Translations under genes and position numbers: made by a program
NCBI GenBank assembly: GCA_964476505.1
Contig: CAYZAW010000003.1
Span: 2,462-66,461 of the forward strand
Direction: 5' to 3'
DNA: 64,000 nt
Source of the DNA: an uncultured Oscillospiraceae bacterium
GTDB taxonomy: Bacteria > Bacillota > Clostridia > Christensenellales > CAG-138
Shown here: piece after piece, positions 27,495 through 43,387 of the stretch
How positions within the stretch are numbered: position 1 is the stretch's first letter
Layout: each line of letters starts with the position of its first letter
The notes under the pieces: generated by a model
Database searches by the model: none
Told to the model about the DNA's origin: nothing
The model's input: only the letters and a program-made list of their open reading frames with translations

Positions 27495-27539
27495 TCTATA
27501 CGTTCCTCCTTCGTGTATCTGTAAAGCCGTGGCTTTGGT

Positions 27540-28343
27540 TTATTGAAACACCTGTTTTAAACGGCGGTAGCTATTCGTAAATGCGTCCATATCACCGTAC
27601 AGGTCGCTGTACACCTCCACGAATGCCGGGCCGGTATAGCCCATATCGTCAAGCGCACGCTTTAGCGCCGCAAAGTTGCAGTTGCCTTCAAAGGGCAGTA
27701 AGGGAACGGCGCGGTCTTTTTCGATGCGGTAATCGCACAGATGTACGTTTGCCAGTTTATCGCCGATGGCGGCAAGGTAGCCGGGCCATTCCTGCCCGCT
27801 TCTAGCCGCCTGCTTTACATCCAGCGTAAAATACAACCAGTCGGTCTTGGCGGCATCTAAAATACGGGCGGCAAACGCAGGCTCTGAAAAGAGGCACCAG
27901 CTTACGTTTTCCCATGTAAGCGTTACGCCGTAGCTGTGCGCAAGCGCACACAGATCGCGGGTGATGGGGCCAATTCGCGTGAGCTCCAAATTTCTTGCGG
28001 CACCCCGTAAAAGTGCGCTGCCGTGAAACACATAGTACTTTGCGCCCAGCGTTTTTGCCCCTTGCAGCACCTTTTCGTACAGCGCCCACGCATCCTGCCG
28101 TTGGCGGGGGTGGATGGAAAACAACTGCGCCTCAAACTGCACGCCCATGGGATGAACGCTGTACGGCGTTAGCCCGCTTTCTTTTATTCGCCGGTCTACC
28201 AACGAGATAAACGCCGGTTCGTACTCCGAAAACGTATTTAAGAATACCTCACAAACGGACGCGCCACAAGCCTTGATTTGCGAAAAGCTGTCTTCCAGTG
28301 GGAAACGCGCAAACAAGCTTGCGGTAGATATCCCCAATTCCAT
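27540..28343 (-). CDS. sugar phosphate isomerase/epimerase (xylose isomerase-like TIM barrel)
   Basis: 267 aa. Overall pattern of the AP_endonuc_2/TIM-barrel family (YYVFHG, LTWEN, HLCDY). Substrate unknown. Confidence 0.65.
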   Translation of the reverse strand: MELGISTASLFARFPLEDSFSQIKACGASVCEVFLNTFSEYEPAFISLVDRRIKESGLTPYSVHPMGVQFEAQLFSIHPRQRQDAWALYEKVLQGAKTLGAKYYVFHGSALLRGAARNLELTRIGPITRDLCALAHSYGVTLTWENVSWCLFSEPAFAARILDAAKTDWLYFTLDVKQAARSGQEWPGYLAAIGDKLANVHLCDYRIEKDRAVPLLPFEGNCNFAALKRALDDMGYTGPAFVEVYSDLYGDMDAFTNSYRRLKQVFQ

Positions 28344-28426
28344 GCCTGCGTCCTCCCTTCATACTGCCATGCAGTATATCAAAAAAACCGATTTTGTGAA
28401 AGCCGTTTACGCGTATTTCTTCCTTG

Positions 28427-28435
28427 TGTTATACT
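28427..28435 (+). promoter_or_regulatory. extended -10 (TGt-TATACT) ending 7 nt before the DUF3810 ATG
   Basis: gTGtTATACTgtgcggtATG. A TTTACG -35-like hexamer lies 18 nt upstream. Confidence 0.4.
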
Positions 28436-28442
28436 GTGCGGT

Positions 28443-29597
28443 ATGGAACAACAGGATATGCAAAAACAAAAACAGAAAAAACGCCTGTCGCCCGAATGGC
28501 GGTTTGTATTGCTGCGCCTGCCGTGGCTGCTTTTGATACCGCTTGCCATGTGCTTGGCGCATGTTGCCTCCCGTAACCCGCAGTATATTGAGGATATCTA
28601 CGCAAAGAGCATTTATCCCGTGATAAATCAAATCGTGGGAACCATATTCTCCTTTGCGCCCTTTTCCGTTGTGGAGCTGGTGTTATACGGGTTGATCATC
28701 GGGCTTGCGCTGTTTGTGATCGTAAGCGTTGTTCGTATGATTACGGGCAGTATGCCGGTGCACCGGTTCGTAAACAAGCTGGTTTCTCTTGGCATTGCCT
28801 TTGGCGTACTGTTCAACCTGTTTTATTTTTCGTGGGGCTTCAATTATTTCCGCCCGTCCATTGCAAACGCCATGGAGCTAAACGTACACGAACGCAGCCA
28901 GCGGGAATTGGAAACGCTTTGCTATTCTCTGGCGGAGGCAGCAAACGATCTGCGGACGCAAGTAAACGAGGACAGCACAGGCGTATTTACGCTGCCCGCA
29001 GGCACGACCCTTGCGGACTGCTTCCAAAAGGCTGCCGATTCCTATACCGCGCTTGGAAAAGAGTATCCCATGTTTACCTACGCACCGGCAAAAGCAAAGT
29101 ATGTGCTGGCCTCGGAGGCCATGAGCTGGGCAGGCATTTCCGGCATCTTTGTGCCGTTTACGGCGGAATCCAACTTAAACGTGCATCAGCCGCTTTTAAT
29201 GATTCCCGTATCCGCCGCACACGAAAATGCGCATGCCTGCGGCATTGCCCCGGAAAATGAGGCAAATTTCGTGGGATTTCTCGCCTGTATGTACAGTTCC
29301 GACACGACCTTGCAGTACTCCGGCGTGATGCTGGCGCTCATCAACAGCGGCAACGCCCTGCACGACAGCGACGAGGCCGCCTATGACCGGCTGTTTGCCA
29401 CTTATTCGGAGGGCGTTGTGCGTGACATCAAGCATTACAACGCCTATTGGAAGGCTTACGAAGGCCCCGTGGAGGAGGCCATGACGGAAATGAACGACAA
29501 TTACCTGAAATACAACCGGCAGGAAAGCGGCGTAAAAAGCTACGGGGAAATGGTGGATTTGCTGCTGGCTTGGCTGGAAAAGGAAAGCGCCTCTTAA
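28443..29597 (+). CDS. DUF3810-like membrane-anchored putative zinc metallopeptidase
   Basis: The track ORF begins at 28278 and overlaps the divergent gene. The first plausible start is ATG 28443 (MEQQDMQKQKQKKR...). TM segments near the N-terminus and an HExxH motif (AHENAHACG). Confidence 0.6.
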   Translation: MEQQDMQKQKQKKRLSPEWRFVLLRLPWLLLIPLAMCLAHVASRNPQYIEDIYAKSIYPVINQIVGTIFSFAPFSVVELVLYGLIIGLALFVIVSVVRMITGSMPVHRFVNKLVSLGIAFGVLFNLFYFSWGFNYFRPSIANAMELNVHERSQRELETLCYSLAEAANDLRTQVNEDSTGVFTLPAGTTLADCFQKAADSYTALGKEYPMFTYAPAKAKYVLASEAMSWAGISGIFVPFTAESNLNVHQPLLMIPVSAAHENAHACGIAPENEANFVGFLACMYSSDTTLQYSGVMLALINSGNALHDSDEAAYDRLFATYSEGVVRDIKHYNAYWKAYEGPVEEAMTEMNDNYLKYNRQESGVKSYGEMVDLLLAWLEKESAS

Positions 29598-30646
29598 AGA
29601 AGCGCTTTTTTGATATTCTCTGCAAATGCCGCCGCCCGTTTTTCAATACCGGGAAGCGTTTGTATCTCGCCGGGATCGTTAGCGGTTTCCAGCATGCAAA
29701 ATCCGGGCGGCAGGTAAAAGGCTTTGTTCATGTTCAGGCTGGAGATGAGCTGCATGCCTACGATATCTCCTCCGCTATATCCGGACACCACGATACCGAA
29801 CAACTGCTTCTCGTAAAAGCGCCTTCTGCGAAACAGCCCCGTGAGGCGGTTGATGAACGCATTTAAATTTGCGCCCAGCGCATCGTTATAATTGGGGCAC
29901 AGCAGCAGCAGCCCGTCGCATTCCGTAATGGCCGGATACAACTGCTCCACCATCACACCGCCGTAAAAGCAATTTCCCTGCTCGCTAAAATGCATACAGG
30001 TGGTATAGGCACAGCCCACGCAGTCCACCACCGCGCCGTTACGAAGGGTAATTTCCTGCAATTGGATTTCTTGCGGCAAACGCTCCTTTACCATGCTCCA
30101 CAACAACAGCGTATTAGAGGTGGTGCGGTTACTGGCGTGCAGCACCAGCAGCTTTGGGTTAGGCCTTTTTTCTATTGGCGCAGCGGTCAGCCGCTCCACA
30201 AGCGCCGCCGTTTCCGCACGGTACGCCTCCTCCGGCATGATACCGCTGTAATTTGCCACAACGCGGTAGTTGTGCAGCGTTCCCGTGCCTTCCGCAAGAG
30301 GTCGCCCCACAAAGGCGCAGCCGGCTGCGTTTGCCGCCAGCACAAAGGCGCGGGCGCAATCCTTGGTATACAGCTCCTCCTGCCCATCTATCACGATACC
30401 GCCGGTACAGCCCGCAAGCGCTTCCTTATGCCTGCGAAGCCAAGCCATGCTTTCGTATAAAGCGGGGTTATATCCGCCTACTTCCAACGCCGCCGCAAAC
30501 AGCACGGTGCTATCAGGCTGTATATGCGCCGGATGCTCCACCGCCGTGTGCGGGGTGTTCATAAGCGCATGCGCCAAAAGGCCGTCCAGCCGCTTAGAGG
30601 ACGCGCCCATTTGGCATACGATCAGTTTTTTGCCCGATTCCGTCAT
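29594..30646 (-). CDS. tandem flavodoxin-like / NAD(P)H-dependent FMN reductase-like protein
   Basis: 350 aa. The C-terminal half (KLLVLHASNRTTSNT...LLLLCPNYNDALGANLNAFINRL) matches the flavodoxin-like FMN reductase pattern with a Cys cluster CVGCAYTTCx8C. The N-terminal half also looks flavodoxin-like. ATGA overlap with the upstream gene. Confidence 0.55.
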   Translation of the reverse strand: MTESGKKLIVCQMGASSKRLDGLLAHALMNTPHTAVEHPAHIQPDSTVLFAAALEVGGYNPALYESMAWLRRHKEALAGCTGGIVIDGQEELYTKDCARAFVLAANAAGCAFVGRPLAEGTGTLHNYRVVANYSGIMPEEAYRAETAALVERLTAAPIEKRPNPKLLVLHASNRTTSNTLLLWSMVKERLPQEIQLQEITLRNGAVVDCVGCAYTTCMHFSEQGNCFYGGVMVEQLYPAITECDGLLLLCPNYNDALGANLNAFINRLTGLFRRRRFYEKQLFGIVVSGYSGGDIVGMQLISSLNMNKAFYLPPGFCMLETANDPGEIQTLPGIEKRAAAFAENIKKALL

Positions 30647-31824
30647 AGCAAGCTTTCCTGCTGCACCAATGTGTCGTACGCGTTTTTAAGCCGCGCCATC
30701 AGCGGCTCCGGTATAGGTTCCACTTCCCAATCCAAACCCGCTTGTGTAAACCGGTTATAGCAGCCAAAGTAGGCGTTTCCCAAGGGGATAGCGCTATAAT
30801 GCCAGTCTCCCCGGATGGCGGCAAGGATAGAAAGCGCCCCCGAGGACAGCGCCGGGGCGATATACGGCTTAAAGCCCGTTTCGCGAAGCGCCAGATTGGC
30901 CTGCACCACCTGCTGCGTCAGTTCACGGGAAAGCACATCATCATACGCCGACAGGCTGTTTGCGATCACTAGCGCCTGCCCGTGAGGGCCGTACGCGCGG
31001 CCTTCCGATAAAAACGATTGAAAGCGCGGCTCCTTTTTTGCGTAATACGCGGCGCGGGCGTTCATTACCCCAAGGCCAAAGCCCTGTATCTGTTCCGGAC
31101 GAAGGCCGTTCCCGTCCCACTCGCCCGCTTTGTTTTGATTGCTGTATAGAAACGCCGCGCGGGACAGCACATCCACCGGGTCAGACACCACACAGAACAA
31201 TCCCTGATACCGCGCCGCTCTTGCCAGCTTTGCGTAGTGCTTGATGATCGCCGCATTTCCCGCAAGCTGCGCCATGCGCACGTCCGTTTTCTGCGTGCTA
31301 AGCGGCGGCACGGCTTTGCAGGCGCAGAAAATGAACACATCGCATGAAAACAGCTCCTCCGCCTGCAAGGGATGCACGGCGGGCAGCGCATCATACGCTC
31401 GCGGCCAAGCGATCTGGTTCATTTCAAAGGCATAGCGCTGCATCTGCGCTTGATTTACGTCGTAAATGCCGATACGCTCTATCACATCTCCGCCCAACAG
31501 CACCAGCCCCGTTAACAGCGTTGCTCCTACGTCTCCCAGTGCCAGCAGATGCATCCGTTTTTTCCCTGACGAAAACGGTACGGAAGGCATTTTTGCCGTA
31601 CAGCCCCAGCAGTTGTTCACCGCACGGGCTGTGCCGTTACGAATGGCGCTTTGCTGGGCCGGCGTAAGCGATACCTCCTGTGTATGCCCGGTTTCGTTGA
31701 GCCATGCAATGCCCGCAGCTTCGGTAAGCTGCCATGGGCGCGTGACGCAAAACGATCCCATGGAGGAACGCTTTGCCTGCTCTAAAATGAATACGGTTTG
31801 CCCGTTGTATTGCTCGCTTTGCAT
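30643..31824 (-). CDS. LDH/MDH-superfamily 2-hydroxyacid dehydrogenase-like protein with an N-terminal extension of about 90 aa
   Basis: 393 aa. Rossmann LLALGDVGATL...IGIYDVN. Counterparts of the LDH catalytic residues are present: VRMAQLAGN (R-x-x-x-L..N), VVSDPVDVL, NARAAYY (Arg) and YGPHGQ (His). Confidence 0.55.
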   Translation of the reverse strand: MQSEQYNGQTVFILEQAKRSSMGSFCVTRPWQLTEAAGIAWLNETGHTQEVSLTPAQQSAIRNGTARAVNNCWGCTAKMPSVPFSSGKKRMHLLALGDVGATLLTGLVLLGGDVIERIGIYDVNQAQMQRYAFEMNQIAWPRAYDALPAVHPLQAEELFSCDVFIFCACKAVPPLSTQKTDVRMAQLAGNAAIIKHYAKLARAARYQGLFCVVSDPVDVLSRAAFLYSNQNKAGEWDGNGLRPEQIQGFGLGVMNARAAYYAKKEPRFQSFLSEGRAYGPHGQALVIANSLSAYDDVLSRELTQQVVQANLALRETGFKPYIAPALSSGALSILAAIRGDWHYSAIPLGNAYFGCYNRFTQAGLDWEVEPIPEPLMARLKNAYDTLVQQESLL

Positions 31825-31825
31825 A

Positions 31826-34800
31826 TTACCCTCGTTCTATCATGTCGCCAACGCGCAGCAGCGCTTCAATATCGCTTGTAACATACACCGAAGGCGGCAG
31901 GTTCACATCGTAAGACAAGCTGCCCCGATCCGGCACCCTTGGCCACAGCAGTGCCTCACCCAAACGGTTGAGCGTTAAGTTGCGTTCATACAGCAGTTGA
32001 TGCTCTTTTTCCAGCGTTTCCAGTATCGCCCTCGCGTTTTCCAAGCAGGTGAGCGAAAGCCGGTATACCGCCTCCTGACTCACATCCGATATAAAGCCGG
32101 GGTACGCGTAGGGCAATATCTGGTTGATGGAGGGCAGCGTATGCAGGCTGCGCCTTGCGCTTTCTCGAAGCACGCTGTCTCCGCCCAAGAAGGGATACAG
32201 CATGCTTTCCACAAACCAGTACCGCAGATTGGGAATGAAATACACGCAATCCACCTCGCGCCCCTGTACCGCCATCAAGTCCTTGCCCCTGCCGGACAGG
32301 ATTCCAACCACGATCTTTTTGATGGACAGGCCCGCCTCAACAAATAGCGGATCGAGCGCCTCTAAGCGGTAGCCCTTATGCAGCAGGTCGTCCGCCAATA
32401 TGACGGGACGGCGGAAGGAATGGATGACCCGAATCTGATTCATCAGGCTGGAATAGCCCGGGTATTCCGTAATGGTAAAGGATTTTGCGTCCGGCGCGTA
32501 TATCTTTTCGGCGTGCAGCCCTTTTGTGACCGTGTTTGGCACCACAACGCCGCGCAGTATTTTCCCGTACGGTACGCACATGTATTCGCCAAGCGGGCGG
32601 GAGCCGTCTGTTGCTGTAACGTTTCCGTTTGCCGCAATGATCTTTTGGGTAAGCGCGTGGTTCAAAAGCCCCGCGTGAAAGGACAGCACCAGCCGCCCCG
32701 GATACAGCTCCGACATTGCCTTGGAAAAGCTCTTATGCGTATCGTTTAGCACCTGCTCCACGGCAGGCCTATCTCTTAGGGGCGCTTTGATGCCCTGCTG
32801 CACATCCTCGATTAGGGCGATGGGCGTTCGCATATCCACGATATAGATGTGCTCGCGCTCCTCCTCTCCCGGCAGCTGCACAAAGCCTTGCCTTAAAAGC
32901 GTGCCGCGAAGCTTCGCGTCGTCCGAAACGCCGTTCCCGTGATAAATGGCATAGGTATAATCCTGTTCCAGCAGCCTTGCCAGCGTTTCTGTTAACAGCA
33001 GGCGGAATACATCCCGCCGGTACACGCCCGCCGCAAATATGCCGGACAGTACAGCGATCTTGCCGGAGGTATGCCTTCGCACATATTCCGACAGCGCAAT
33101 GCTGCCAAACTCGCGGAACAGCTCCGCTCCGTTGGTGCGATACACACATGCACAGCCAAGCGGCCTGTCCCCCGCCGCCTCGTCCACCATTTCCATTACA
33201 TACGCGTTGGGGCGGCTTAGGCTGTACTGTATCACCTGCGCAAGCTGCTGGGGCTCCATGTCCGTCCCCTCGGCGGCAACAGCCATCACGCGATCCAACA
33301 GTGCGCCGTCGTCCGGGCTGCGCCGCCTGAACGATAGCGTTTCCGACGGCAGCTGCTCCTTATACTGCGGCTCCCGCAGATACAGGCCGTTATCGTAAAT
33401 GTAATTTTGCGCCACCGGGTCAACCAGCATGGAGATATCCCGGTTATAGTCCACATTCTCGCGAATGCGGCTGGAGCTCACATCCTCCAGATAGGTAGGC
33501 AGCGCCAGCTCAATGATCTCGTTTTTCACACGGGAGCGAATGACCCGCTTTTGCTCTTCCCATGCACCGTCTTCCATATTACGGCGGAAAATCACATGGG
33601 GCAGGTGATGGATGGAATGCGCCGTAGGCGCTTTGCGGTAAGAGGAGGCGTTTAGTATCACGTCGCTTCCCGCAACGATGTACAGCGTTTGCCCCGGAAA
33701 CTGCCGCTGCAACAGTACCAGATCCTCCGGGTTTGCCAGATTCACCGGAATATCGTCCGGGAAAACGAACACCGAAAACGCATCCGCCACAGACATGTTC
33801 ACGATTCGCCGCCGCACGTCATGAGGCTGGGTGCGCTTTGACCAGCTGAATTCGTCCACCGCCAGATACACGTCCAAGCCCAGATCGCGTATGGCCTTAA
33901 CAATGCCCTTATGGCTGGAGGAAAAGGGGTCGAAGGTGCCCGGGAAGAACGCAACGCCCTTGGATTCCGGGAACTGGAACGGGCCGAAGCGCACCGTTGC
34001 GTTGGTGATAAAGCGGTAAATATGGTTCAGCGACGCCGCACTGTTAAAGAACGTAAGTGTATCCTGCCGCTGCTCGTACAGCAGCGTCAGCAGCTTTTTA
34101 TGGATGCGCTTGAACAGCGTGCGCTTGCGTTCGTATAACAGGTCGCTTCCGAACAGCTGTTTGCCGATTACTAAAAATGCCTCTTGGCATACCGAATCGT
34201 TATAATGCGCAAGCCCGGAGAGCAACAGCCCCAGCATGCGATCCCGGCGGGCGGTAAAGGTATCGTTATCCTCCTGAAAGCGCGCTTGGTATTCCTCATC
34301 GTAATGCAGCAGCAGCACGCCAAGCGTTGGCATGGTAACGCAGGCGGCGCGTTCGTTTGCGGATTTGATGTACTTTTGGAATTCGTCTATGATCTCGTCC
34401 AGCTCTTTCGGGTGCAGGTATAAGGCAAACCGCCCCAAATACCGGGGAATATACTTGGAAAACTCGTACTCTGCCGTTTCCAGCCCCTTGGTAAGCTCAA
34501 TGGCGATCTCGTTTCGCTGTTCCAGCGTTAGGCGGCCGGCAATGCGAATGAGCGCATCTCCCGCCGCATGCCGCACGGTGATTCGCTCGCTCACGCGCAC
34601 CAAATTAGCAAGGTGCGTGGCTACCTGCAGCGCTTTATCCTGCTCCTCCGTTCGCAGGTGGAACAGTAATAGCTCGATGTTGATCTCCTTAATGACCCAC
34701 GGTGTAGCCGTTTTTAAATTGTCTAAAAACAACCCCGCATAATCGGAGGCGATGAGCGCGCTGTTGCAGGCCTCCGCCTGCCGTTCCATGCCCGGCAGCA

Positions 34801-36703
34801 TGCTATAAATACAATACTGCAGGTAAAGGATGCTGATATCCTGCTTCTCCGGCAGCGCCTGTATGATTTGTTCTGTTTGCAGCCGCATGCCCTGCCGAAT
34901 TTCATCATCTGTCAGCACATATTGCAAGAACCGCAGCGCCACGGCGTGATTGCGGCGTTCCTGCGTGTGCTGCATCACATACAGCGCCAGCGCAAAGGGG
35001 CCTATTAAGTTATTGATTGATAAATAGCGCAGCGGCACCATACACAGGCTGTCCAGCAACACGAAGGGGTACGCCTCCGTGCGGTACCGCTCCTGCGTAA
35101 AGCAGGCAAGGTACGGCTCCAGATACCGCTCGGCATCCTCCGGCCTGCAATTTTCTAGGATAGACTGTAATACGATCTTTAGCGTATACCCGATCCATAC
35201 CCGGTGCTTGGCCGCCACCTTGTGATCCGGATTCAATATCCGTTCTATGTATTGTGCCCATAGGTCAAAGCTGGTTTCCCCAACCGGCGACGGCCTTGCA
35301 TGGCGGGGCAGCTCCTTGCGGTATTCCACATCGTAATGGGTGAGGATGTTACCTAAAAGCGCTGCCGCCTGCCGCCGGATATCCCCTTGGTTGTGCAGGA
35401 ACAGCTCGTATAAAAACCGCATGGTGATCAGCTTTTGCCGCTGGGTCATGTAGGTAAAATACTCTTCCAGTATGTTGATATAGGCGCGGATATGCTTCCA
35501 GTCCTTTTCCGTGCGGGCAGCCTCCAGCATATCCACAAAGGCCGTTTCGGAGCTAAAGCGCCGCATGAGCGACAGGTTCTCCCGAATGGCGCAGAACTTG
35601 AGCCCCTGCACGGCCTCCTGCGGCGTCATAAGGGCGGGGTGTTTGCTGACGGCTTGACCGGGCACGTTGGAAAACGGGTCGGTATTCACGCCGAGCGACA
35701 CCATATAATCCTCAAAATCGTGCAGCTTACGGTATACGCGCTCATACCGGCGGCGCTTTTTATCGTCTACATGATCCAGCTTGGAAAGTATAACGGAATA
35801 GGATTCGTCTAGCGTATATACCCGTATCTGTTCCTTGCCCAAAGCATCGTGCGTGCTTTTCACGCGAAAATCCGCGTAGATCAACAGTAGCGATTCCACC
35901 GGCAGGTTTTCCAGCTCCAAATCCCAAGTGGAATGGTTGGCGGCAATATGCGCGATTCCATCCAAAGAGTAACGCTTGAGCCACTCGTCCGTATAGTAAT
36001 AATGCAGGTACGGAATGCGGGCGGTTTCGTCGCCCTTGCAGCCGAATTTACCGATATCGTGCGACAGCGCCGCCGCGGACACCAGCGGCAGGTCTACCGC
36101 CGCCTCGGTATTGATAAGCTGCCGCGCCGTATGCATGGCAACGTGATGCACGCCCGCAATATGCCCCAGCGTATCAAACGGCATGATCTCCCGCCCGATA
36201 TGCAGCAGCTCTTGCACAAAGGAACGATCCAACAGCTTTAAAAAGCGCTCGTACGCATCCTTTGTTTGGCTGTTCTCCAACTCCTGCGGCTGCGCCAGCG
36301 CAAACCATGTATGCGGGTCAAACTCGCCTTCTGCTTCCTCCGCCTGTAAAAAAGTGCGGTACGTCAAAAGAAAGAACAATGCCGCGCGGTTCATTTGGGT
36401 ATCCCGGCTCTTTGGCGGGTCGGACGGGAACAACTGCTCCACAAGGTCGTGATACAGATAGTTTAGCCACCCCTCCGGCGGCTCCTTGGCGTACAGCTCC
36501 ATTACCGGACGGCATAAGGAAAGAACCGCGTCAGCCGTGACCGGCGTGCCGGTGCGATACTGTGAAACGCGGTTCTTAAAGTCTTGCTCGCGCAACAGGA
36601 GAAGCAGCGCCTTTTTTGTGATCTGCGCCGTTTTTAGGAATTCCCTTTGGGAAAGGTTATTTAAGAGGCTTTGGTAGAATGCGTTTGGCGCCGTTTTAGG
36701 CAT
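31826..36703 (-). CDS. 1625-aa multidomain protein: HD phosphohydrolase + helical (HEAT-like) repeats + NadD-like nucleotidyltransferase + GNAT-like + PRTase-like regions
   Basis: Uninterrupted ORF with AGAGGAG 8 nt before the ATG. Motifs verified in the DNA: HDIGK at 36047-36061, GTFDPF at 33923-33940 and VILADDLL at 32381-32404. Function unknown. Confidence 0.8.
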   Translation of the reverse strand: MPKTAPNAFYQSLLNNLSQREFLKTAQITKKALLLLLREQDFKNRVSQYRTGTPVTADAVLSLCRPVMELYAKEPPEGWLNYLYHDLVEQLFPSDPPKSRDTQMNRAALFFLLTYRTFLQAEEAEGEFDPHTWFALAQPQELENSQTKDAYERFLKLLDRSFVQELLHIGREIMPFDTLGHIAGVHHVAMHTARQLINTEAAVDLPLVSAAALSHDIGKFGCKGDETARIPYLHYYYTDEWLKRYSLDGIAHIAANHSTWDLELENLPVESLLLIYADFRVKSTHDALGKEQIRVYTLDESYSVILSKLDHVDDKKRRRYERVYRKLHDFEDYMVSLGVNTDPFSNVPGQAVSKHPALMTPQEAVQGLKFCAIRENLSLMRRFSSETAFVDMLEAARTEKDWKHIRAYINILEEYFTYMTQRQKLITMRFLYELFLHNQGDIRRQAAALLGNILTHYDVEYRKELPRHARPSPVGETSFDLWAQYIERILNPDHKVAAKHRVWIGYTLKIVLQSILENCRPEDAERYLEPYLACFTQERYRTEAYPFVLLDSLCMVPLRYLSINNLIGPFALALYVMQHTQERRNHAVALRFLQYVLTDDEIRQGMRLQTEQIIQALPEKQDISILYLQYCIYSMLPGMERQAEACNSALIASDYAGLFLDNLKTATPWVIKEINIELLLFHLRTEEQDKALQVATHLANLVRVSERITVRHAAGDALIRIAGRLTLEQRNEIAIELTKGLETAEYEFSKYIPRYLGRFALYLHPKELDEIIDEFQKYIKSANERAACVTMPTLGVLLLHYDEEYQARFQEDNDTFTARRDRMLGLLLSGLAHYNDSVCQEAFLVIGKQLFGSDLLYERKRTLFKRIHKKLLTLLYEQRQDTLTFFNSAASLNHIYRFITNATVRFGPFQFPESKGVAFFPGTFDPFSSSHKGIVKAIRDLGLDVYLAVDEFSWSKRTQPHDVRRRIVNMSVADAFSVFVFPDDIPVNLANPEDLVLLQRQFPGQTLYIVAGSDVILNASSYRKAPTAHSIHHLPHVIFRRNMEDGAWEEQKRVIRSRVKNEIIELALPTYLEDVSSSRIRENVDYNRDISMLVDPVAQNYIYDNGLYLREPQYKEQLPSETLSFRRRSPDDGALLDRVMAVAAEGTDMEPQQLAQVIQYSLSRPNAYVMEMVDEAAGDRPLGCACVYRTNGAELFREFGSIALSEYVRRHTSGKIAVLSGIFAAGVYRRDVFRLLLTETLARLLEQDYTYAIYHGNGVSDDAKLRGTLLRQGFVQLPGEEEREHIYIVDMRTPIALIEDVQQGIKAPLRDRPAVEQVLNDTHKSFSKAMSELYPGRLVLSFHAGLLNHALTQKIIAANGNVTATDGSRPLGEYMCVPYGKILRGVVVPNTVTKGLHAEKIYAPDAKSFTITEYPGYSSLMNQIRVIHSFRRPVILADDLLHKGYRLEALDPLFVEAGLSIKKIVVGILSGRGKDLMAVQGREVDCVYFIPNLRYWFVESMLYPFLGGDSVLRESARRSLHTLPSINQILPYAYPGFISDVSQEAVYRLSLTCLENARAILETLEKEHQLLYERNLTLNRLGEALLWPRVPDRGSLSYDVNLPPSVYVTSDIEALLRVGDMIERG
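32159..32701 (-). other. type-I phosphoribosyltransferase-like region (aa ~1335-1515)
   Basis: RRPVILADDLLHKGYRLEAL keeps the hydrophobic-DD signature of the PRPP motif but lacks the TxGxT loop. The context resembles the PurF C-terminal domain. Confidence 0.4.
32804..33331 (-). other. GNAT-like region (aa ~1125-1300)
   Basis: The beta-strand/helix pattern IAVLSGIFAAGVYRRDVFRLLLTETLARL...YAIYHG...LRQGFVQL resembles an acetyltransferase fold, but the Q/RxxGxG/A motif is degenerate. Confidence 0.35.
33380..33958 (-). other. NadD/cytidylyltransferase-like region (aa ~916-1108)
   Basis: FFPGTFDPFSSSH is a degenerate form of GxFxPxHxGH. IVAGSD is present. The tail VSSSRIRENV...LVDPVAQNYIYDNGLY resembles the NadD ISSTxIR...YI..n.LY end. 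Confidence 0.6.
35834..36211 (-). other. HD-domain region of the 1625-aa protein (aa ~165-290)
   Basis: GHIAGVHHVAMH ... LSHDIGK ... ANHSTWD ... LLIYADF, following the H...HD...D pattern. Confidence 0.7.
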
Positions 36704-36743
36704 GCTGCGTTCTCTCCTCTTTGGCGTATTCCTTTGTAAAAGC

Positions 36744-37250
36744 CTATTCCGGCATAAAGGTCGTAATCACGGTAAAGGTGTAATCCATCATCTGCACATC
36801 CATATCGGTACCGATCTGCGCATAGATATGGTTCTTGCCCGGATAGATCACCAGCCCAAAGCTTTGTGCGGAATGCAGCTCGGTATTGGCTACCTCCGTG
36901 CCGTCCTCGTCAAAAAAGGCCATGCCCATTTGCCCGAACAGCGTTTTGGGATAGGTGCTGTTGCACACGCCGTCTAAATACGTGCCGCCTCCGTACTCAT
37001 ATACGCGAATCTCCTCAAAGGACAGGTATTGCAGGTAATGATCCTCCGTATACACCACGCTGCCACGCGCATCGGTAGGGCGCGGCTCCGGCGTGATGCT
37101 CTGCGACAGCGGCATAGGCGTTGGCGAGGGCGATGGCGACGGCGTTGGCGCAGTTGCCCACACGGGCTGCTGTGATATGCAGCCCGAAAGCAGCGCCGCC
37201 AAAAGAGCGGCTATAAGTATCAGCAAAATTGAATGGCAGCCGCGCTTCAT
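36744..37250 (-). CDS. small secreted lipoprotein of unknown function
   Basis: 168 aa. Signal peptide plus lipobox (LLSGC) and a Pro/Ser/Thr linker (APTPSPSPSPTPMP). TAATG overlap with the pncB stop. Confidence 0.7.
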   Translation of the reverse strand: MKRGCHSILLILIAALLAALLSGCISQQPVWATAPTPSPSPSPTPMPLSQSITPEPRPTDARGSVVYTEDHYLQYLSFEEIRVYEYGGGTYLDGVCNSTYPKTLFGQMGMAFFDEDGTEVANTELHSAQSFGLVIYPGKNHIYAQIGTDMDVQMMDYTFTVITTFMPE

Positions 37251-38692
37251 TACTCTTCCACGGTGGGCTGACAGCTCCGTAACAGCCCCTGCTTCAGGTC
37301 GTACAGCTTGTCCGAAAGGTCTACCTTATACACATGGGGGTTCAAGAGCCGCTTATACTCCTCCCACATGGTAGCAAGCTCCTGCTTGGCATAGCTTTGG
37401 ATGGTTTTGATGTCCGGAGACTCATACACCTGCTTGCCGTTTTGGAAGATGGGCACCAGCAGCTCTCTTGCGGTAAAGTCCGTCAGCACCATGGACTTCC
37501 ACGTTTGCACGGGGTCGAAGATGCGAAGGGGCTTTGTGTCGTCTATCACTTCGTCTGCCAAGGCGATCAAGTCCGCAATGGCCTTGCCGTTCTTTCTTCG
37601 GTATAGACGATACACCTTTTTATAGCCGGGGTTGGTTACCTTAGCGGGGTTATCGCTGATTTTGATTTTGGGAATCGTTACGCCGTTGACCACCTCTGCG
37701 GACATTTTATAAACGCCGCCAAGCGCCGGGCAGTCGTCTGAGGTGATGAGCCTTGTTCCAACGCCCCACACGTCGATGCACGCACCCTGCGCCTTAAGAT
37801 CGCGGATAACCGTTTCGTCCAAGTCGCTGGAAGCGAATATCTTGGCTTTTTCGTACCCGGCAGCGTCCAGCATGGCGCGGGCTTTTTTGGATAAATACGC
37901 CAAGTCGCCGGAATCCAAGCGGATGCCAATGGGTTCGTAACCCTTTTGACGAAGCTCGTCAAAGCATTTGATGGCGTTTGGCACGCCGCTTCTAAGCGTA
38001 TCGTAGGTATCCACCAACAGCATGCAGGTATCCGGGAACACGTCTGCATACGCACGGAAGGAATCCAGCTCCGTTGGGAAGCTCATCACCCAGCTGTGTG
38101 CGTGGGTGCCCTTCACGGCGATATCGAACATCTGCCCGGTCAGTACGTTACTGGTAGCGTCGCAGCCGCCGATGATGGCTGCCCTTGCGCCGTAAATACC
38201 GGCATCCGGCCCTTGGGCGCGGCGAAGGCCGAATTCCAGCACGGAGTCTCCGTTTGCGGCATACACCACACGGCTTGCCTTGGTGGCGATAAGCGTTTGA
38301 TGATTGATCAAATTCAACAGCGCTGTTTCTACCAGCTGTGCTTCCATGATAGGCGCTTTTACGCGTAGCAGCGGCTCGTAAGGAAACACGATGGTACCCT
38401 CCGGCATGGCGTATATCTCGCCGGTGAAGTGCAGCTCCTTTAAATACTGCATGAAGGATTCATCAAACAGCTTCAGCGAGCGAAGATAGTTTAGATCCTC
38501 CTCTGAAAAATGCAGCTCATTGATATACTCGATAGCGCTTTCCACACCCGCCATCACGGCATAGGCGCTGTTTTCCCGGGTCTTTCTGAAAAACAGGTCG
38601 AATACGGCCTCGTTGTTGGACATGCCGTGTTTATAGTAACCGTACATCATCGTTAGCTGATACAGATCCGTCAGCATCGTTAGATTTCGCAT
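37250..38692 (-). CDS. pncB: nicotinate phosphoribosyltransferase
   Basis: 480 aa. The LTDLYQLTMMYGYY N-terminus and GTHAHSW motif are typical of PncB. Confidence 0.9.
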   Translation of the reverse strand: MRNLTMLTDLYQLTMMYGYYKHGMSNNEAVFDLFFRKTRENSAYAVMAGVESAIEYINELHFSEEDLNYLRSLKLFDESFMQYLKELHFTGEIYAMPEGTIVFPYEPLLRVKAPIMEAQLVETALLNLINHQTLIATKASRVVYAANGDSVLEFGLRRAQGPDAGIYGARAAIIGGCDATSNVLTGQMFDIAVKGTHAHSWVMSFPTELDSFRAYADVFPDTCMLLVDTYDTLRSGVPNAIKCFDELRQKGYEPIGIRLDSGDLAYLSKKARAMLDAAGYEKAKIFASSDLDETVIRDLKAQGACIDVWGVGTRLITSDDCPALGGVYKMSAEVVNGVTIPKIKISDNPAKVTNPGYKKVYRLYRRKNGKAIADLIALADEVIDDTKPLRIFDPVQTWKSMVLTDFTARELLVPIFQNGKQVYESPDIKTIQSYAKQELATMWEEYKRLLNPHVYKVDLSDKLYDLKQGLLRSCQPTVEE

Positions 38693-38714
38693 AGTATCAC
38701 TCCAGCCTTTCGCG

Positions 38715-39761
38715 TTATGCTTCTGTTTCGGGGTCTTTTAGTGCTTCCGAAGCGGCGGGTTCCTCGGCTTTTGCCGGGGATTCCTCTGTGGTGGGCTCCT
38801 CGGTTTTTGCCGGGGACTCCTCGGCGGGTTCCTCAGCCGCTTTCGCTGTTTCCTCCGCCGGCTGCTCCGTTTCTGTTGCAGGCGTATCCGCAGTTACTTT
38901 GGCCGCTTGTTCGCCAGCCTCCTCCGGTATGGCCTCCGGCGTTGGCCAAATCAGCCTACCGAGTTTTTTCTCGCGGGCTTTACGAATCAGGAAGAACGCG
39001 GCAACGCCCACCACAAACAGGAGGGAGAGCATTTGCGAAACACGGATGACGCCGGGGATGAGCCACAGGCTGTCGCCCCGAAGCGGCTCCACCAGCATCC
39101 GTTCAAAGCCGTACAGCAGCAGATACCAGCAAAATACGTCGCCGTCGTGCTTGGTACGCTTGCGGATGATAAACCACAGCGCCAAGAATACAAGCAGGCA
39201 CCATAAGGATTCATAGAAGAACGTGGCAAGGTGATACGGATTTGTGCAGATCTCGCCATTGAAATAATGCAGCCCGTCGATCTTGACCGCCAAGGGGAAC
39301 CACATCATGTTGGGGTCTGTTACGGCAAATCCGAAGGCTTCCTGATTGAAGAAGTTGCCCCAGCGGCCAATGGCCTGTGCCAGCACCAGCCCCGGCGCAA
39401 AGATGTCCATCATTTTGAGCATGCGCAACTTTTTCACTTTTGCATACACGAACATGCCGATGAGCCCGCCAATCATGGCACCGTAAAACGCTAAGCCGCC
39501 CTCCCAGATATACAGGATGCGGATGGGGTCTGCCAAATACTGCTCCAACTCAAAGAGCACGTAATACAACCGTGCGCCAACGATACCGCTTGGAATCAAC
39601 ACCAAGCACATATCCAGCACAAAGTCCTGCTTCATTTTTTTTCGCTTTGCTTCAACGGTGGAAAGCAGAACCGCCAGCAAAATGCCCAGCGCCATCAATA
39701 CACCGTACCAGTAAATATCTTTTCCGAATATCGTGAACGCAACACGGCTTGGATTTTGCAT
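38715..39761 (-). CDS. lgt: prolipoprotein diacylglyceryl transferase with an acidic low-complexity C-terminal tail
   Basis: 348 aa. GARLYYV, GGLAFYGA and GRWGNFFNQE motifs. The last ~80 aa are rich in E, P, A, K and T. Confidence 0.9.
   Translation of the reverse strand: MQNPSRVAFTIFGKDIYWYGVLMALGILLAVLLSTVEAKRKKMKQDFVLDMCLVLIPSGIVGARLYYVLFELEQYLADPIRILYIWEGGLAFYGAMIGGLIGMFVYAKVKKLRMLKMMDIFAPGLVLAQAIGRWGNFFNQEAFGFAVTDPNMMWFPLAVKIDGLHYFNGEICTNPYHLATFFYESLWCLLVFLALWFIIRKRTKHDGDVFCWYLLLYGFERMLVEPLRGDSLWLIPGVIRVSQMLSLLFVVGVAAFFLIRKAREKKLGRLIWPTPEAIPEEAGEQAAKVTADTPATETEQPAEETAKAAEEPAEESPAKTEEPTTEESPAKAEEPAASEALKDPETEA
38761..38822 (-). repeat. imperfect 36-nt tandem duplication inside the lgt tail
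   Basis: tcctcggcttttgccggggattcctc (38761-38786) versus tcctcggtttttgccggggactcctc (38797-38822). These encode EESPAKTEEPTT and EESPAKAEEPAA. Confidence 0.8.
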
Positions 39762-39816
39762 AACAAAAATCCTCCCAATCGACTTGATGGAAGTTATTAT
39801 ACTCCATTCTGTTGCA

Positions 39817-39852
39817 AAACAAAAGAGCGGCTGTGGCGCAACCGCTCTTTTT
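39817..39852. terminator. hairpin flanked by A- and T-runs between the yaaL-like gene and lgt
   Basis: Minus-strand RNA reads AAAAAGAGCGG-uugcgccaca-GCCGCUCUUUUGUUUUG. A TATAAT box (39796-39801, minus strand) follows, upstream of lgt. Confidence 0.6.
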
Positions 39853-39869
39853 GCACTTCCGCAAAAACG

Positions 39870-40343
39870 CTATATACCCTCCGGCATGCCCGCGTTTTCC
39901 TCCTCTTTTTGCCGCACGGCCTGCAGCAGGTAAATGTAACGCTTTTTTGCGGCTTCCATTTCAAACACCGCATAGTCCACCAGCGTTGGGTCTGTTACGT
40001 TTTCAAAAAATACCTTGGCGTTCTTCCACTGGGTAAGCGCATGCTCCACGTCCCGCTTTCGCTGTTCCAGCGTGTAATCGTCCTCATAAGTTGTGCGCTC
40101 CTGCGCGGCGTGATACATAACAGGCGCATGCTCGCTTTCTTCCTCGTATGCATCCTCCGGTTCCGTTACAAAAAGCCAGCCCTTGATCTGCTGCCACGTT
40201 GACAGAAGCCTGCCCGCTATTTTATACGGGTTTTTGACCGGGCGGCCAATTTCCGGCATGCGCGGCTCCGGGTCGATCTCGGGCGTTTGCGGCTCGGGCT
40301 CCCATTCCGGCAGTTGTTCGTAGTGATTCCAAAGTTTTCGCAT
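39870..40343 (-). CDS. DUF2508 (YaaL-like) protein with an acidic N-terminal extension of about 95 aa
   Basis: 157 aa with AGGAGGAG 7 nt before the ATG. The C-terminal 60 aa (WKNAKVFFENVTDPTLVDYAVFEMEAAKKRYIYLLQ) fit the YaaL/DUF2508 pattern. Confidence 0.6.
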   Translation of the reverse strand: MRKLWNHYEQLPEWEPEPQTPEIDPEPRMPEIGRPVKNPYKIAGRLLSTWQQIKGWLFVTEPEDAYEEESEHAPVMYHAAQERTTYEDDYTLEQRKRDVEHALTQWKNAKVFFENVTDPTLVDYAVFEMEAAKKRYIYLLQAVRQKEEENAGMPEGI

Positions 40344-40358
40344 GGTCGTTCTCCTCCT

Positions 40359-40389
40359 AAAAAGGGCATACTCATTCTTGAGTATGCCC
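40359..40389 (-). terminator. strong intrinsic terminator whose U-tract runs into the yaaL-like RBS
   Basis: Minus-strand RNA reads GGGCAUACUCA-agaa-UGAGUAUGCCC (11 bp, perfect) followed by UUUUUAGGAGGAG. Confidence 0.75.
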
Positions 40390-40495
40390 TCAGAAGGAAA
40401 AACGATACTGTTCGTTATTGCAGGGTCTCAATGCGCTCCGCCCATTTTTGCACCCGCGGTTTGGCGGCCTCACTCTGTTTTTTCCATAGTTGTTC

Positions 40496-42733: not shown

Positions 42734-43297
42734 CTAGCTTTCCACGCCCTCTAGGTATGCATCGATCTCGTTTAGCCGGTCGAACACGATACCCTCCTGC
42801 AGCGCCTTTTGCACATCCTCATGCAAAACGGATACGTCAAAGGGGATCTCCGTTTCCGTTTGCCGGGTATAATCCTGCTGATCGGTTTTGCTGTACCAAA
42901 GGGAATCGTCCTTTTTGGTTTGCAGCAGATAATGCGCCGGGCAGCAGGCAGGCATTTCCCGCTCGATAAGCGCATGCGTCTTTTCCAGCTCCATTATGTG
43001 CGCATTGTTCCAAAGGGTTTCCACCTGCGCCCCGGTCAGCCCCACAAGCTCCCGGTTGGCATACGCCTGCTCCAAAATATGCCCGCACTTTAAAAAGGTA
43101 TAGCGAACGGTGATCTCCGTTTGCGGCAAAATGCTTTTCTCTCCGATCTCTGCCACCTCTGCCGCAGGGAGCGTTTCCACGGCAAGCGGCTCCTGCCTAT
43201 CTGTCGGCAGTTGAATGATAAGGCCTATCAAAAGGCCTGTGACCACCAATATCGTTCCCAGCAGTATCCATCTGCCGTATTGCTTCCATAACTGCAT
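42734..43297 (-). CDS. membrane-anchored BofC-like protein
   Basis: 187 aa with an N-terminal TM segment. The C-terminal IPFDVSVLHEDVQKALQEGIVFDRLNEIDAYLE resembles the BofC C-terminal domain pattern (F.ID...L.....L..GI.F....E). Assignment is tentative. Confidence 0.4.
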   Translation of the reverse strand: MQLWKQYGRWILLGTILVVTGLLIGLIIQLPTDRQEPLAVETLPAAEVAEIGEKSILPQTEITVRYTFLKCGHILEQAYANRELVGLTGAQVETLWNNAHIMELEKTHALIEREMPACCPAHYLLQTKKDDSLWYSKTDQQDYTRQTETEIPFDVSVLHEDVQKALQEGIVFDRLNEIDAYLEGVES

Positions 43298-43387
43298 TGG
43301 ATTCCCTCCTTTGTGTTTTCATGTATGCCCAAAACCTTTCCTGTCGATACAGGATTGGGTATAATGGAACAGTTGGGAGGGTCTGTT

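Follow-up and report, generated by a model that had tools for sequence, protein, structure and literature searches.

In a 64,000-nucleotide stretch of DNA from an uncultured Oscillospiraceae bacterium (hereafter the window), a giant multi-domain protein, a dehydrogenase and a flavoprotein are encoded, in that order, by a three-gene operon that is widespread in the class Clostridia and vertically inherited. This triad is conserved in hundreds of clostridial species and makes up a module without described function; we found no match to it in the literature. In the lineage of the window, a transcription unit of lgt, pncB and a lipoprotein gene has acquired the triad at its 3' end.

Gene layout in the window

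The window carries six consecutive minus-strand genes, and direct reading of the sequence together with ORF calling gave the coordinates, strand and junctions reported in the initial annotation. The first gene, lgt (38715-39761), encodes a prolipoprotein diacylglyceryl transferase (TIGR00544, 194.6 bits against a cut-off of 118.9). It is separated by 22 nt, with no terminator-like site in the gap, from pncB (37250-38692), which encodes nicotinate phosphoribosyltransferase (NF006695, 712 bits against a cut-off of 469). The pncB stop overlaps, as TAATG at 37250, the start of a gene for a small lipoprotein of 168 aa (36744-37250), which has a signal peptide and the lipobox LSGC and no family match in Pfam or NCBIfam. 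After a 40-nt spacing, in which AGAGGAGAG precedes the ATG, comes the ORF whose translation is the 1625-aa giant protein (31826-36703), the core of the conserved module. Its stop meets the start of the dehydrogenase gene (30643-31824, 393 aa) as TAA-T-ATG, and the dehydrogenase stop overlaps the start of the flavoprotein gene (29594-30646) as ATGA at 30643-30646.

Upstream of lgt, at 39812-39868 on the minus strand, sequence and fold energy point to a terminator-like hairpin with a U-run closing a DUF2508 gene (-24.9 kcal/mol, z = -2.96), followed by a TATAAT box. Since this strong hairpin and U-run separate the DUF2508 gene from lgt, the transcription unit plausibly starts at lgt. With their overlaps and short gaps downstream of that hairpin, the genes form a compact array that is probably co-transcribed, as had been proposed. 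The surroundings are ordinary core chromosome (relA, recJ, secDF, ackA-pta, pgi, proA and aro genes), with a separate RelA/SpoT at 885-3080. A larC-larB-larE cluster lies about 10 kb away.

Extent of the conserved unit

We compared 160 related loci drawn from genomes and metagenomes. The dehydrogenase gene lies directly 3' of the giant gene in 119 of the 129 loci with room for it (66/69 genome and 53/60 metagenome loci), and 107 of 116 (61/64 and 46/52) have the flavoprotein gene. Taking family names from the titles of the genome records, the order and adjacency of the triad are kept in Anaerovoracaceae, Oscillospiraceae, Lachnospiraceae, Sedimentibacter and Christensenellaceae, while all other neighbours vary, and the order is kept in Filifactoraceae as well. 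Conservation over so many clostridial families puts the linkage of the three genes far outside what chance would produce. Acetoanaerobium noterae, whose genome is complete, also has the triad, at identities of 36% (giant), 49% (dehydrogenase) and 30% (flavoprotein).

Start and stop codons within the triad overlap or nearly so both in the window and in distant clades. Moreover, the three proteins show correlated divergence from locus to locus (r = 0.43-0.66), and a search with the dehydrogenase retrieves nearly as many homologs (about 6,150) as one with the giant (about 7,700). Clustered at 90%, more than 7,700 giant homologs have the full length of about 1620 aa; relatives of the giant are encoded in at least 577 GTDB species, and about 285 clusters at 50% identity match its C-terminal third at E<=1e-10. 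One clade has the giant without dehydrogenase and flavoprotein. The module is present in one copy in each locus examined. Its lone "plasmid" match is a mislabelled 2.6-Mb chromosome.

The three upstream genes behave differently. Linkage of lgt-pncB-lipoprotein to the triad is confined to the window and its two closest relatives (L001 and L024), which share an identical six-gene order at 54-58% giant identity and which, among the compared loci, hold the only lipoprotein homologs. None of pncB, lgt and the lipoprotein gene lies near the giant gene in the remaining 78 genome and 80 metagenome loci. In the majority of other loci an intergenic region of its own precedes the giant gene, and the gene beyond it is usually oriented divergently. 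The initial annotation had proposed a five- or six-gene system. What survives of it is the giant, dehydrogenase and flavoprotein, which do occur together elsewhere and form a real, conserved and undescribed functional unit, in a layout that is indeed unlike nadD-yqeK, nadR or pncA/pncB; the upstream half does not extend beyond this small lineage.

Domains of the giant protein

From its N-terminus the giant comprises an HD domain, HEAT-like repeats, a NadD-like nucleotidyltransferase domain, a middle domain of unknown fold and a weakly matching phosphoribosyltransferase (PRT)-like domain. The HD phosphohydrolase domain (residues ~150-330; 35714-36256, minus strand like all that follow) is matched by Pfam HD in 8 of 15 family members, with a best E of 1.2e-6 and 21.6 bits in the window protein; H181, H215-D216, H257 and D278, metal ligands included, are invariant. 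This domain is absent from a sub-clade of giants that begin at about residue 345 and retain the dehydrogenase and flavoprotein. The HEAT/ARM-like region (residues ~390-900; 34004-35536), one of the less conserved parts, is matched by Pfam HEAT in 5 of 15 members, and its profile retrieves designed helical-repeat proteins.

The NadD-like domain (residues ~915-1112; 33368-33961) is matched by CTP_transf_like in 15 of 15 members. In the window protein the NadD model TIGR00482 is covered over its whole profile at E 3.4e-9, with a score far under the cut-off, and both this match and that to HD are weak. Alignment to E. coli NadD by hhalign runs end to end (residues 1-213, probability 85%). The ATP-side motifs GTFDPFSxSH and ISSTRIRE are invariant, whereas PPHK, SYT and Trp, the motifs for NaMN binding, are missing, and therefore a pyridine substrate is not implied. 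Moreover, A. noterae has, beside the triad, a canonical obg-nadD-yqeK locus in which the GGTFDPIHNGH, PPHK, TYT and W motifs are intact, so that the giant is a paralogue of NadD rather than the housekeeping enzyme.

The middle domain (residues ~1116-1310; 32774-33358), which lies between the NadD-like and PRT-like domains and has no match in Pfam, in the PDB or by hhalign, varies more than any other region, and variants of ~1065-1100 aa lack part of it. The PRT-like domain (residues ~1370-1520; 32144-32596), with its PRPP-loop-like motif, has VP(F/Y)GKILRG and (V/I)LxxDDLLHKGYR as invariant motifs. Pfam Pribosyltran matches weakly in 3 of 15 members (18.7 bits in P0326), and in hmmsearch and hhalign comparisons with E. 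coli PyrE, Apt, Prs and PurF the PRPP loop alone aligns. The match to PRTs in the window protein is very weak, and the PRT assignment leans on this one loop motif and on sub-threshold Pfam matches. A single-sequence structure model of the giant (pLDDT 34) was not usable.

The closest precedent for the giant is the NadD-YqeK fusion. NadD and YqeK are encoded by adjacent genes in Firmicutes and fused in mycoplasmas (e.g. JCVISYN3A_0380), where the HD domain proofreads the products of NadD by hydrolysing NaAD analogues and Ap4A (PMC9426524). The giant likewise joins a NadD-fold adenylyltransferase-type domain to an HD domain, and the logic of proofreading or turnover may be shared. However, its HD domain is N-terminal and followed by ~550 residues of helical repeats before the nucleotidyltransferase domain; it matches no YqeK family model; its NadD-like domain also lacks the first His of HxGH; the middle and PRT-like domains add ~500 C-terminal residues; and it has a dehydrogenase and a flavoprotein as partners that we call obligate. 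Nor does it replace the genuine nadD-yqeK pair, with which it coexists in A. noterae. NadR (HTH-NMNAT-RNK) and NadM-Nudix also join an adenylyltransferase-type domain to other nucleotide-processing domains, but these are kinase, Nudix and HTH domains rather than HD, HEAT and PRT-like ones, neither protein has redox partners, and the giant's domain is closer to NadD than to that of either.

The dehydrogenase and the flavoprotein

The dehydrogenase consists of a small N-terminal domain (residues 1-85) and an LDH-like part (86-393). An AF2 model built with an alignment (pLDDT 89.8, pTM 0.91) retrieves L-LDH and MDH from the PDB by Foldseek, with E near 1e-16, a TM of about 0.76 and identities of 16-18%. 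With that superfamily it shares the two-domain fold, a Rossmann-type GxxG and the NAD-specific Asp, and G97, G100, D122, R183, R257 and H281 are invariant. It differs from LDH and MDH in falling ~ten-fold short of both equivalog cut-offs, in having neither Gln nor Arg at the Q102/R102 specificity position, and, in many members, in the extra N-terminal domain of ~85 residues; DPVD stands in place of NPVD. The catalytic residues had been described as retained, which holds for the equivalents of LDH R109, R171 and H195, all invariant, but not for D168, where an equally invariant Met is found.

The flavoprotein has an FMN_red domain (residues 164-323, 69 bits), matched in 26 of 26 members, behind an N-terminal domain of ~160 residues with no family match; the protein has no NCBIfam match and no significant sequence match in the PDB. 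Four Cys, invariant in the 26 sequences, form the motif C209-x2-C212-x4-C217-x8-C226 (29969-30022, minus strand), a putative [4Fe-4S] site, and three members give weak Pfam "FeS" matches. The iron-sulfur flavoprotein Isf of Methanosarcina thermophila likewise has an FMN_red-type flavodoxin-like domain and a compact four-Cys motif placed past the second strand. However, the Isf motif is CX2CX2CX4-7C rather than CX2CX4CX8C, and Isf has no counterpart of the N-terminal domain.

Discussion

What does such a module do? In other lineages the neighbours of the giant gene include purN-purH-purD, tdk with an hpt-like PRT gene and deoC, and a gene for a PPDK_N (PEP-utilising type) protein, the last directly upstream in 6 loci. 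Genes of nucleotide and PRPP metabolism are independent neighbours in three lineages (purN-purH-purD; tdk, the hpt-like PRT and deoC; pncB in that of the window), and together with the PPDK_N gene they point to PRPP and nucleotide metabolism. Upstream of the module we found no NAD riboswitch, Rex box or other shared operator.

Our best guess, and a tentative one that we would put below even chances, is that the triad both synthesises and turns over an adenylylated ribose-phosphate compound in a reaction coupled to its redox partners. The substrates, reaction order and physical complex that we infer are as follows. The NadD-like domain would use ATP to adenylylate a ribose-5-phosphate-type mononucleotide, bound otherwise than NaMN is in NadD. 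The PRT-like domain may bind PRPP or a phosphoribosyl compound and so make or sense that mononucleotide, while the HD domain, in the manner of YqeK with NadD, would hydrolyse either the product itself or erroneous ones, and the HEAT-like region would act as a scaffold. The co-translated dehydrogenase could bind NAD(H) and a group of the 2-hydroxy/2-oxo-acid type and exchange electrons with the flavoprotein through its FMN and probable [4Fe-4S] centre. Taken together, these proposed roles would let the module produce, alter or turn over an NAD-like adenylylated compound, with ties both to low-potential redox chemistry and to the pool of PRPP and nucleotides. In the lineage of the window, the adjacent PncB might supply NaMN locally or compete for PRPP. 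Several observations count against this mechanism: one clade does without the HD domain, another has the giant but neither the dehydrogenase nor the flavoprotein, the D168 equivalent is Met, the PRT assignment is weak, and the upstream regions share no operator.

An alternative that we consider unlikely, though worth weighing, is that the module signals the state of the PRPP/nucleotide pool. By analogy with RelA/SpoT and GlnD, the NadD-like and HD domains, carried on one polypeptide, would be the synthetase and hydrolase of a signalling nucleotide, which might for instance be an adenylylated derivative of PRPP or a dinucleoside polyphosphate. PRPP or nucleotides would be sensed by the PRT-like and middle domains, in the way of PurR or PyrR, and the redox partners would report the redox state of NADH/NAD+ or of ferredoxin. 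Where PRT folds have become sensors, as in PurR and PyrR, they are typically as diverged from catalytic PRTs as this one; pncB, the hpt-like PRT gene, deoC, tdk and purNHD are PRPP consumers or nucleotide-salvage genes; and the upstream promoters look constitutive, with no metabolite riboswitch. However, the likeness to RelA/SpoT and GlnD, which also combine a nucleotidyl or pyrophosphoryl transfer domain, an HD hydrolase and extra sensor regions in one large polypeptide, is at most one of working principle; the transferase folds are unrelated. If synthetase and hydrolase were an obligatory pair, one would not expect a clade that has lost HD and otherwise keeps the whole module. We also recognise no effector or output domain, and no NadD-fold enzyme is known to make alarmones.

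We give rather less credence to the original proposal, a single pyridine-nucleotide system of five or six genes from lgt to the flavoprotein in which the giant converts NaMN from PncB to NaAD or a derivative. The coupled junctions, the single terminator/promoter region upstream of lgt and the gene order kept in both close relatives fit it, and a bona fide PncB immediately upstream of a NadD-like domain does recall Preiss-Handler salvage (PncB, NadD, NadE). The lar pathway encoded nearby consumes NaAD. But lar genes occur in 0 of 80 genome loci, only one small lineage links pncB to the triad, with pncB, lgt and the lipoprotein gene away from the giant in all the remaining loci, nadE is not nearby, and lgt and the lipoprotein have no evident tie to nucleotide chemistry. 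The missing NaMN-binding motifs, a score far under the NadD equivalog cut-offs and the canonical nadD alongside the triad in A. noterae count against the pyridine reading itself. The initial interpretation is partly supported.

It is also doubtful, and slightly more so, that three unrelated housekeeping enzymes simply share a promoter and have no common pathway. Each protein does belong to a broad, generic superfamily, and the surroundings are plain core chromosome. However, the triad keeps its order across families though its other neighbours change, its start and stop codons overlap, its proteins diverge in a correlated manner, and the dehydrogenase and giant searches return similar numbers of homologs.

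Still less probable, in our judgement, is a cofactor pathway built on a 2-hydroxy acid, in analogy to F420 (CofC/FbiD and an FMN-dependent reduction). The LDH-like enzyme would make the acid, the nucleotidyltransferase domain would form a phospho-acid nucleotide diphosphate ester, and the flavoprotein would reduce an enol or dehydro intermediate. The carboxylate-binding Arg and catalytic His of the LDH-like fold, the adjacent FMN reductase-type protein and the upstream PPDK_N gene would suit such a scheme, but the argument is one of analogy only: the nucleotidyltransferase domain has the NadD fold throughout, not that of MobA/CofC, and the neighbourhood lacks equivalents of the CofD transferase and CofE ligase. 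Finally, although defence systems often contain large multi-domain HD/nucleotide-processing proteins and NAD-related enzymes, an anti-phage or conflict system acting on NAD+ or nucleotides is barely credible here, given 0 of 6 proteins of the locus matched by PADLOC, 50,697 phage records without a homolog, the core-genome context with one copy per examined locus, and housekeeping-like promoter regions upstream.

Thus, while we favour, tentatively, the synthesis and turnover of an adenylylated ribose-phosphate compound, the giant-dehydrogenase-flavoprotein triad itself is an uncharacterised conserved module of the Clostridia.

Results

The gene for the giant protein, a multi-domain protein of 1625 residues (31826..36703, minus strand), forms a co-inherited, tightly packed three-gene operon with the genes for a dehydrogenase (30643..31824, minus strand) and a flavoprotein (29594..30646, minus strand) that follow it. 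Among 80 related loci from genomes, the dehydrogenase gene lies directly 3' of the giant gene in 66 of the 69 loci with room for it, and the flavoprotein gene is present in 61 of 64; for 80 metagenome loci, which were seeded with distant variants, the corresponding counts are 53/60 and 46/52. When all ORFs of the genome loci were clustered, no fourth conserved gene emerged. The initial annotation had extended the unit to three upstream genes, lgt, pncB and a lipoprotein gene, and this extension failed, since these genes stand beside the giant gene only in the closest relatives (L001 and L024). Elsewhere the upstream neighbour varies and is usually divergent, and the intergenic regions upstream of the giant gene measure 200-300 nt and contain sigma-A-like promoter elements. 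We saw no shared operator in these upstream regions, only sigma-A-like -10/-35 elements, and no Rex box beyond scattered matches with three mismatches; in 13 related loci no Rfam family was matched and no riboswitch was found.

At least 577 species-representative genomes encode a relative of the giant protein. By the titles of the genome records, the carriers belong to Anaerovoracaceae, Oscillospiraceae, Lachnospiraceae (Blautia, Anaerotignum), Sedimentibacter, Christensenellaceae and Peptococcaceae, and common gut genera with the module are Blautia, Oscillibacter, Dysosmobacter, Flintibacter, Anaerotignum and Lentihominibacter. The triad is also found in the complete genome of Acetoanaerobium noterae DSL2. 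The A. noterae record NZ_CP154629.1 (loci L170 and L171) is labelled in PLSDB as a 2.63-Mb 'plasmid pTPELB2'; as it carries the core genes obg-nadD-yqeK-rsfS, it is evidently a chromosome and not a plasmid.

Within the window, our ORF calls recover all six minus-strand genes at the coordinates first assigned to them, and reading of the sequence bears out the proposed junctions. The pncB stop overlaps the lipoprotein start in TAATG, the giant ORF starts after a 40-nt gap that contains AGAGGAGAG, TAA-T-ATG leads from the giant stop to the dehydrogenase start, ATGA is the overlap of the dehydrogenase stop with the flavoprotein start, and lgt is separated from pncB by 22 nt without a terminator-like site. 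Because a stable hairpin with a U-run behind it (-24.9 kcal/mol, z = -2.96) and then a TATAAT box lie between the upstream DUF2508 gene and lgt, the local transcription unit most likely begins with lgt and ends with the flavoprotein gene. No Rfam family was matched in window 27000-42000. Judged by their profile matches, pncB (712 bits against a cut-off of 469 for NF006695, and E ~1e-41 for both NAPRTase_N and NAPRTase_C) and lgt (194.6 bits against an NCBIfam cut-off of 118.9) are bona fide; the lipoprotein, 168 aa long, has a signal peptide and the lipobox LSGC and matches no family in Pfam or NCBIfam. On the far side, a DUF3810 gene (28278-29597, plus strand) converges on the flavoprotein gene (29594-30646, minus strand), and the 4-nt overlap of their 3' ends leaves no space for a terminator of either transcript. 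The DUF3810 and AP_endonuc_2 neighbours are also kept in L024.

At the 90% cluster level the giant protein has over 7,700 homologs, and almost all of them are about 1,620 aa long. At its N-terminus (residues ~150-330), 8 of 15 family members match Pfam HD with a best E of 1.2e-6, the protein from the window itself scoring 21.6 bits against a cut-off of 22, and the metal-binding signature H...HD...D is invariant (H181, H215-D216 and D278, together with H257); on these sequence features we assign the domain to the HD phosphohydrolase superfamily. HEAT-like repeats follow (residues ~390-900), then a NadD-like nucleotidyltransferase domain (residues 915-1112, CTP_transf_like in 15/15 members), a middle domain to which no family is assigned (residues 1116-1310), and a C-terminal region whose sole recognisable feature is a PRPP-loop-like motif, (V/I)LxxDDLLHKGYR, with D1438, D1439, G1444 and R1446 invariant. 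Pribosyltran matches this family weakly, in 3 of 15 members and with at most 18.7 bits against a cut-off of 26.3. We compared the phosphoribosyltransferase-like, HD and middle domains by hhalign and hmmsearch with E. coli PurF, PyrE, Apt, Upp, Prs, YfbR, SpoT and CitC and with the Hpt-like phosphoribosyltransferase family. The phosphoribosyltransferase-like part aligned with PyrE, Apt, Prs, PurF and the Hpt-like family at the PRPP loop only, at hhalign probabilities of 12% or less, and beyond this loop none of the three domains gave an alignment in the panel. The phosphoribosyltransferase assignment is thus a weak one, and a suspected PurF-like C-terminal motif was unsupported by these searches. 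Sequence and profile searches of the PDB with the giant protein returned weak NadD and PPAT matches only, and a single-sequence structure model of residues 900-1625 (pLDDT 34) was unusable.

How close does the nucleotidyltransferase domain come to NadD? The whole TIGR00482 profile aligns to it (E 3e-9), with 37.0 bits against a cut-off of 112, NF000840 gives 35.2 bits against 150, and hhalign aligns it to E. coli NadD with 85% probability over the whole enzyme. The C-terminal ISSTRIRE, of ISSTxIR type, is kept, with S1077, I1080 and R1081 invariant. The first ATP-site motif has changed from HxGH to SxSH, where the first His and the Gly are each replaced by Ser and H931 is invariant, and in the hhalign alignment the NaMN-binding motifs are absent: PPHK/R is replaced by SWSKK, SYT is deleted (NIAN-P), and the stacking Trp has become Ser (Ser-Tyr). 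By these scores and motifs the domain appears to fall outside both the NadD equivalogs and the NaMN-binding pattern. Since these tests of NadD membership failed, the name 'nicotinate-nucleotide adenylyltransferase' carried by some database entries is not justified.

The closest precedent is the NadD-YqeK fusion with a proofreading role (PMC9426524). In NadD-YqeK arrangements the HD domain is adjacent or fused to NadD, whereas in the giant protein it lies about 600 residues upstream of the nucleotidyltransferase domain. The NCBIfam matches of the giant protein include no YqeK model, only the generic HD models TIGR00295 and the DVU_1551 family. A. noterae is informative here, as it carries both the triad and, 0.55 Mb from it, a canonical obg-nadD-yqeK locus whose NadD has intact GGTFDPIHNGH, PPHK, TYT, Trp and ISSTEIR motifs and whose nadD precedes a gene for an HD-domain protein that has the size and position of YqeK. 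By this comparison of sequences, the NadD-like and HD domains of the giant protein are additional paralogues rather than the housekeeping NadD, at least in this one genome.

The AlphaFold2 model of the dehydrogenase, built from a 20-sequence alignment (pLDDT 89.8, pTM 0.91), has the predicted two-domain fold of the LDH/MDH superfamily. The top 50 Foldseek matches of this model are all L-LDH/MDH, with E from 1e-16 to 1e-14, target-normalised TM scores of 0.70-0.78 (~0.76) and 16-18% identity. The LDH/MDH equivalog models are missed about tenfold (TIGR01771, 30 bits against a cut-off of 303). Conservation is complete across 29 sequences for GxxG, for D122 (the Asp of NAD type) and for R183, R257 and H281. 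We take R183, R257 and H281 to align to R109, R171 and H195 of LDH, and the invariant M254 presumably occupies the position of LDH D168. Hence the suggestion that the catalytic residues are retained holds for the two arginines and the histidine, and fails at the D168 position, where there is a Met. An apparent fusion of dehydrogenase and flavoprotein (P0123, 606 aa) proved to be an assembly artefact with an internal duplication.

The C-terminal part of the flavoprotein matches FMN_red (69 bits against a cut-off of 24; 26/26 members), and an invariant C-x2-C-x4-C-x8-C runs through the protein family. Its N-terminal domain of about 160 residues matched no family, and sequence and profile searches of the PDB with the flavoprotein gave nothing significant. 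The FMN_red match and the compact Cys motif resemble features of Isf, but the spacing of the four Cys differs from that of the Isf motif, and a [4Fe-4S] cluster in the flavoprotein is putative. Some of the genera that carry the module are presumably non-spore-forming. For this reason, and because the preprint whose Isf proposal lay behind it (bioRxiv 10.1101/803486) has Isf in general as its subject, we dropped as unsupported an analogy of the dehydrogenase and flavoprotein with dipicolinate synthase (SpoVFAB).

The neighbourhood of the giant gene changes among its variants. A search with residues 1116-1625 against 1.84 billion representatives gave 285 clusters at E<=1e-10. In one clade (L090-L101 and L148; e.g. 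L093:1281-12789) the giant protein has about 1,200-1,316 aa, starts at about residue 345 of the full-length protein and lacks the HD domain; the dehydrogenase and flavoprotein are kept, and the genes lie downstream of tdk, pgi, DUF1232, an Hpt-like phosphoribosyltransferase and a DeoC-family aldolase, a setting of nucleotide salvage. In another (L113, L114 and L132; e.g. L114:2466-10717) the giant gene comes directly after purN-purH-purD, at the end of the purine-biosynthesis operon, without dehydrogenase and flavoprotein and with a convergent APH-family kinase gene downstream. In six loci (L143, L149, L152, L163, L165 and L168; e.g. L165:3195-5837, with a stop/start overlap) a protein of 750-880 aa with a PPDK_N domain (the ATP-binding domain of pyruvate phosphate dikinase) is encoded immediately 5' of the giant gene. 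The divergent upstream neighbour in 13-19 loci (e.g. L002:8362-9705) is a gene whose product we read, from its sequence, as glutamate dehydrogenase; by their titles these loci are apparently mostly Anaerovoracaceae, and the association may reflect lineage inheritance rather than a functional link.

Elsewhere in the window, on the minus strand at 47989-53345, larC-larB-larE, for the nickel-pincer nucleotide cofactor and all above NCBIfam cut-offs, are followed by the ECF Ni/Co transporter genes cbiO, cbiQ and a cbiM-like gene. The nickel-pincer nucleotide pathway starts from NaAD, so that in theme the cluster fits the presence of pncB some 10 kb distant. Scanning of window ORFs revealed no gene of LarA type, and a link of the triad to the cluster was rejected, lar genes being present in 0/80 genome loci. 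A complete shikimate/aromatic operon (53474-60691, minus strand) comprises DAHP synthase, prephenate dehydrogenase, aroB, aroA, aroC, a fused aroE-aroK and aroQ. Next to the RNase G gene, at 19357-21856 (minus strand), a conserved pair of undescribed function encodes a B12-binding radical SAM protein (TIGR03960) and its TIGR03936 partner. Three ORFs have no match in Pfam or NCBIfam: 43313-45265 (plus strand, 650 aa), 40496-41326 (minus strand, 276 aa) and 42734-43297 (minus strand, 187 aa).

Discussion

What might such a module do? We infer that the giant protein would adenylylate a phosphoribosyl-type compound, which its PRPP-loop domain may make or sense, and that its HD domain would hydrolyse products, while an associated redox step would be catalysed or sensed by the NAD-binding LDH-like enzyme together with the FMN/Fe-S protein. 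As a whole this scheme is put forward tentatively, with somewhat less than even confidence. A more specific proposal is that the triad makes and recycles an as yet undescribed adenylylated nucleotide in anaerobic Clostridia. In that case the giant protein would start from PRPP, ATP and either a base or an acid. Its product could be a signalling nucleotide or an NAD-like dinucleotide cofactor whose head group is not nicotinate, and this product would be used or redox-modified by the dedicated LDH-like protein and Fe-S flavoprotein. This specific proposal we consider unlikely.

Several rival explanations have to be set beside these. The module could be a nucleotide or PRPP signalling device, and here we note that in three independent lineages the giant gene stands beside PRPP-consuming or nucleotide-salvage genes (pncB; hpt-deoC-tdk; purNHD). 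The six-gene pyridine-nucleotide system of the initial annotation has in its favour a bona fide pncB and a probable common transcript, and against it the restriction of its upstream half to the closest relatives. A third candidate is an F420-like hydroxy-acid cofactor pathway, to be read with the LDH/MDH fold predicted for the dehydrogenase and the FMN_red domain of the flavoprotein. The three genes could also form an operon of convenience; against this, the divergence of their products is correlated across loci, with r = 0.43-0.66. Finally, a defence system is rejected, since PADLOC gave no match for any of the six proteins, phage records gave no match to the module, and 'plasmid' records gave one, to a 2.63-Mb chromosome-sized record.

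All component folds of the module are known, and it is related to the NadD/HD nucleotide enzymes, the LDH/MDH superfamily and the Isf-like flavoproteins; the architecture of the giant protein and its fixed partnership are undescribed. Searches of full-text literature found no description of the family of the giant protein or of the module, and annotations in the sources searched read only 'hypothetical', 'HD domain protein', 'nicotinate-nucleotide adenylyltransferase' or 'lactate dehydrogenase'. The last two are misleading for proteins of the module. Since the giant protein is a NadD paralogue and not the housekeeping enzyme, as seen in A. noterae, it is wrong for metabolic reconstructions to treat it as NadD or the dehydrogenase as LDH. 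The role of the module is directly testable because cultured strains carry it, namely Acetoanaerobium noterae DSL2, Anaerotignum neopropionicum DSM 3847, Anaerovorax odorimutans DSM 5092 and Clostridium aminobutyricum. Identification of its substrate could uncover, in strict anaerobes, a new branch of nucleotide or cofactor metabolism.
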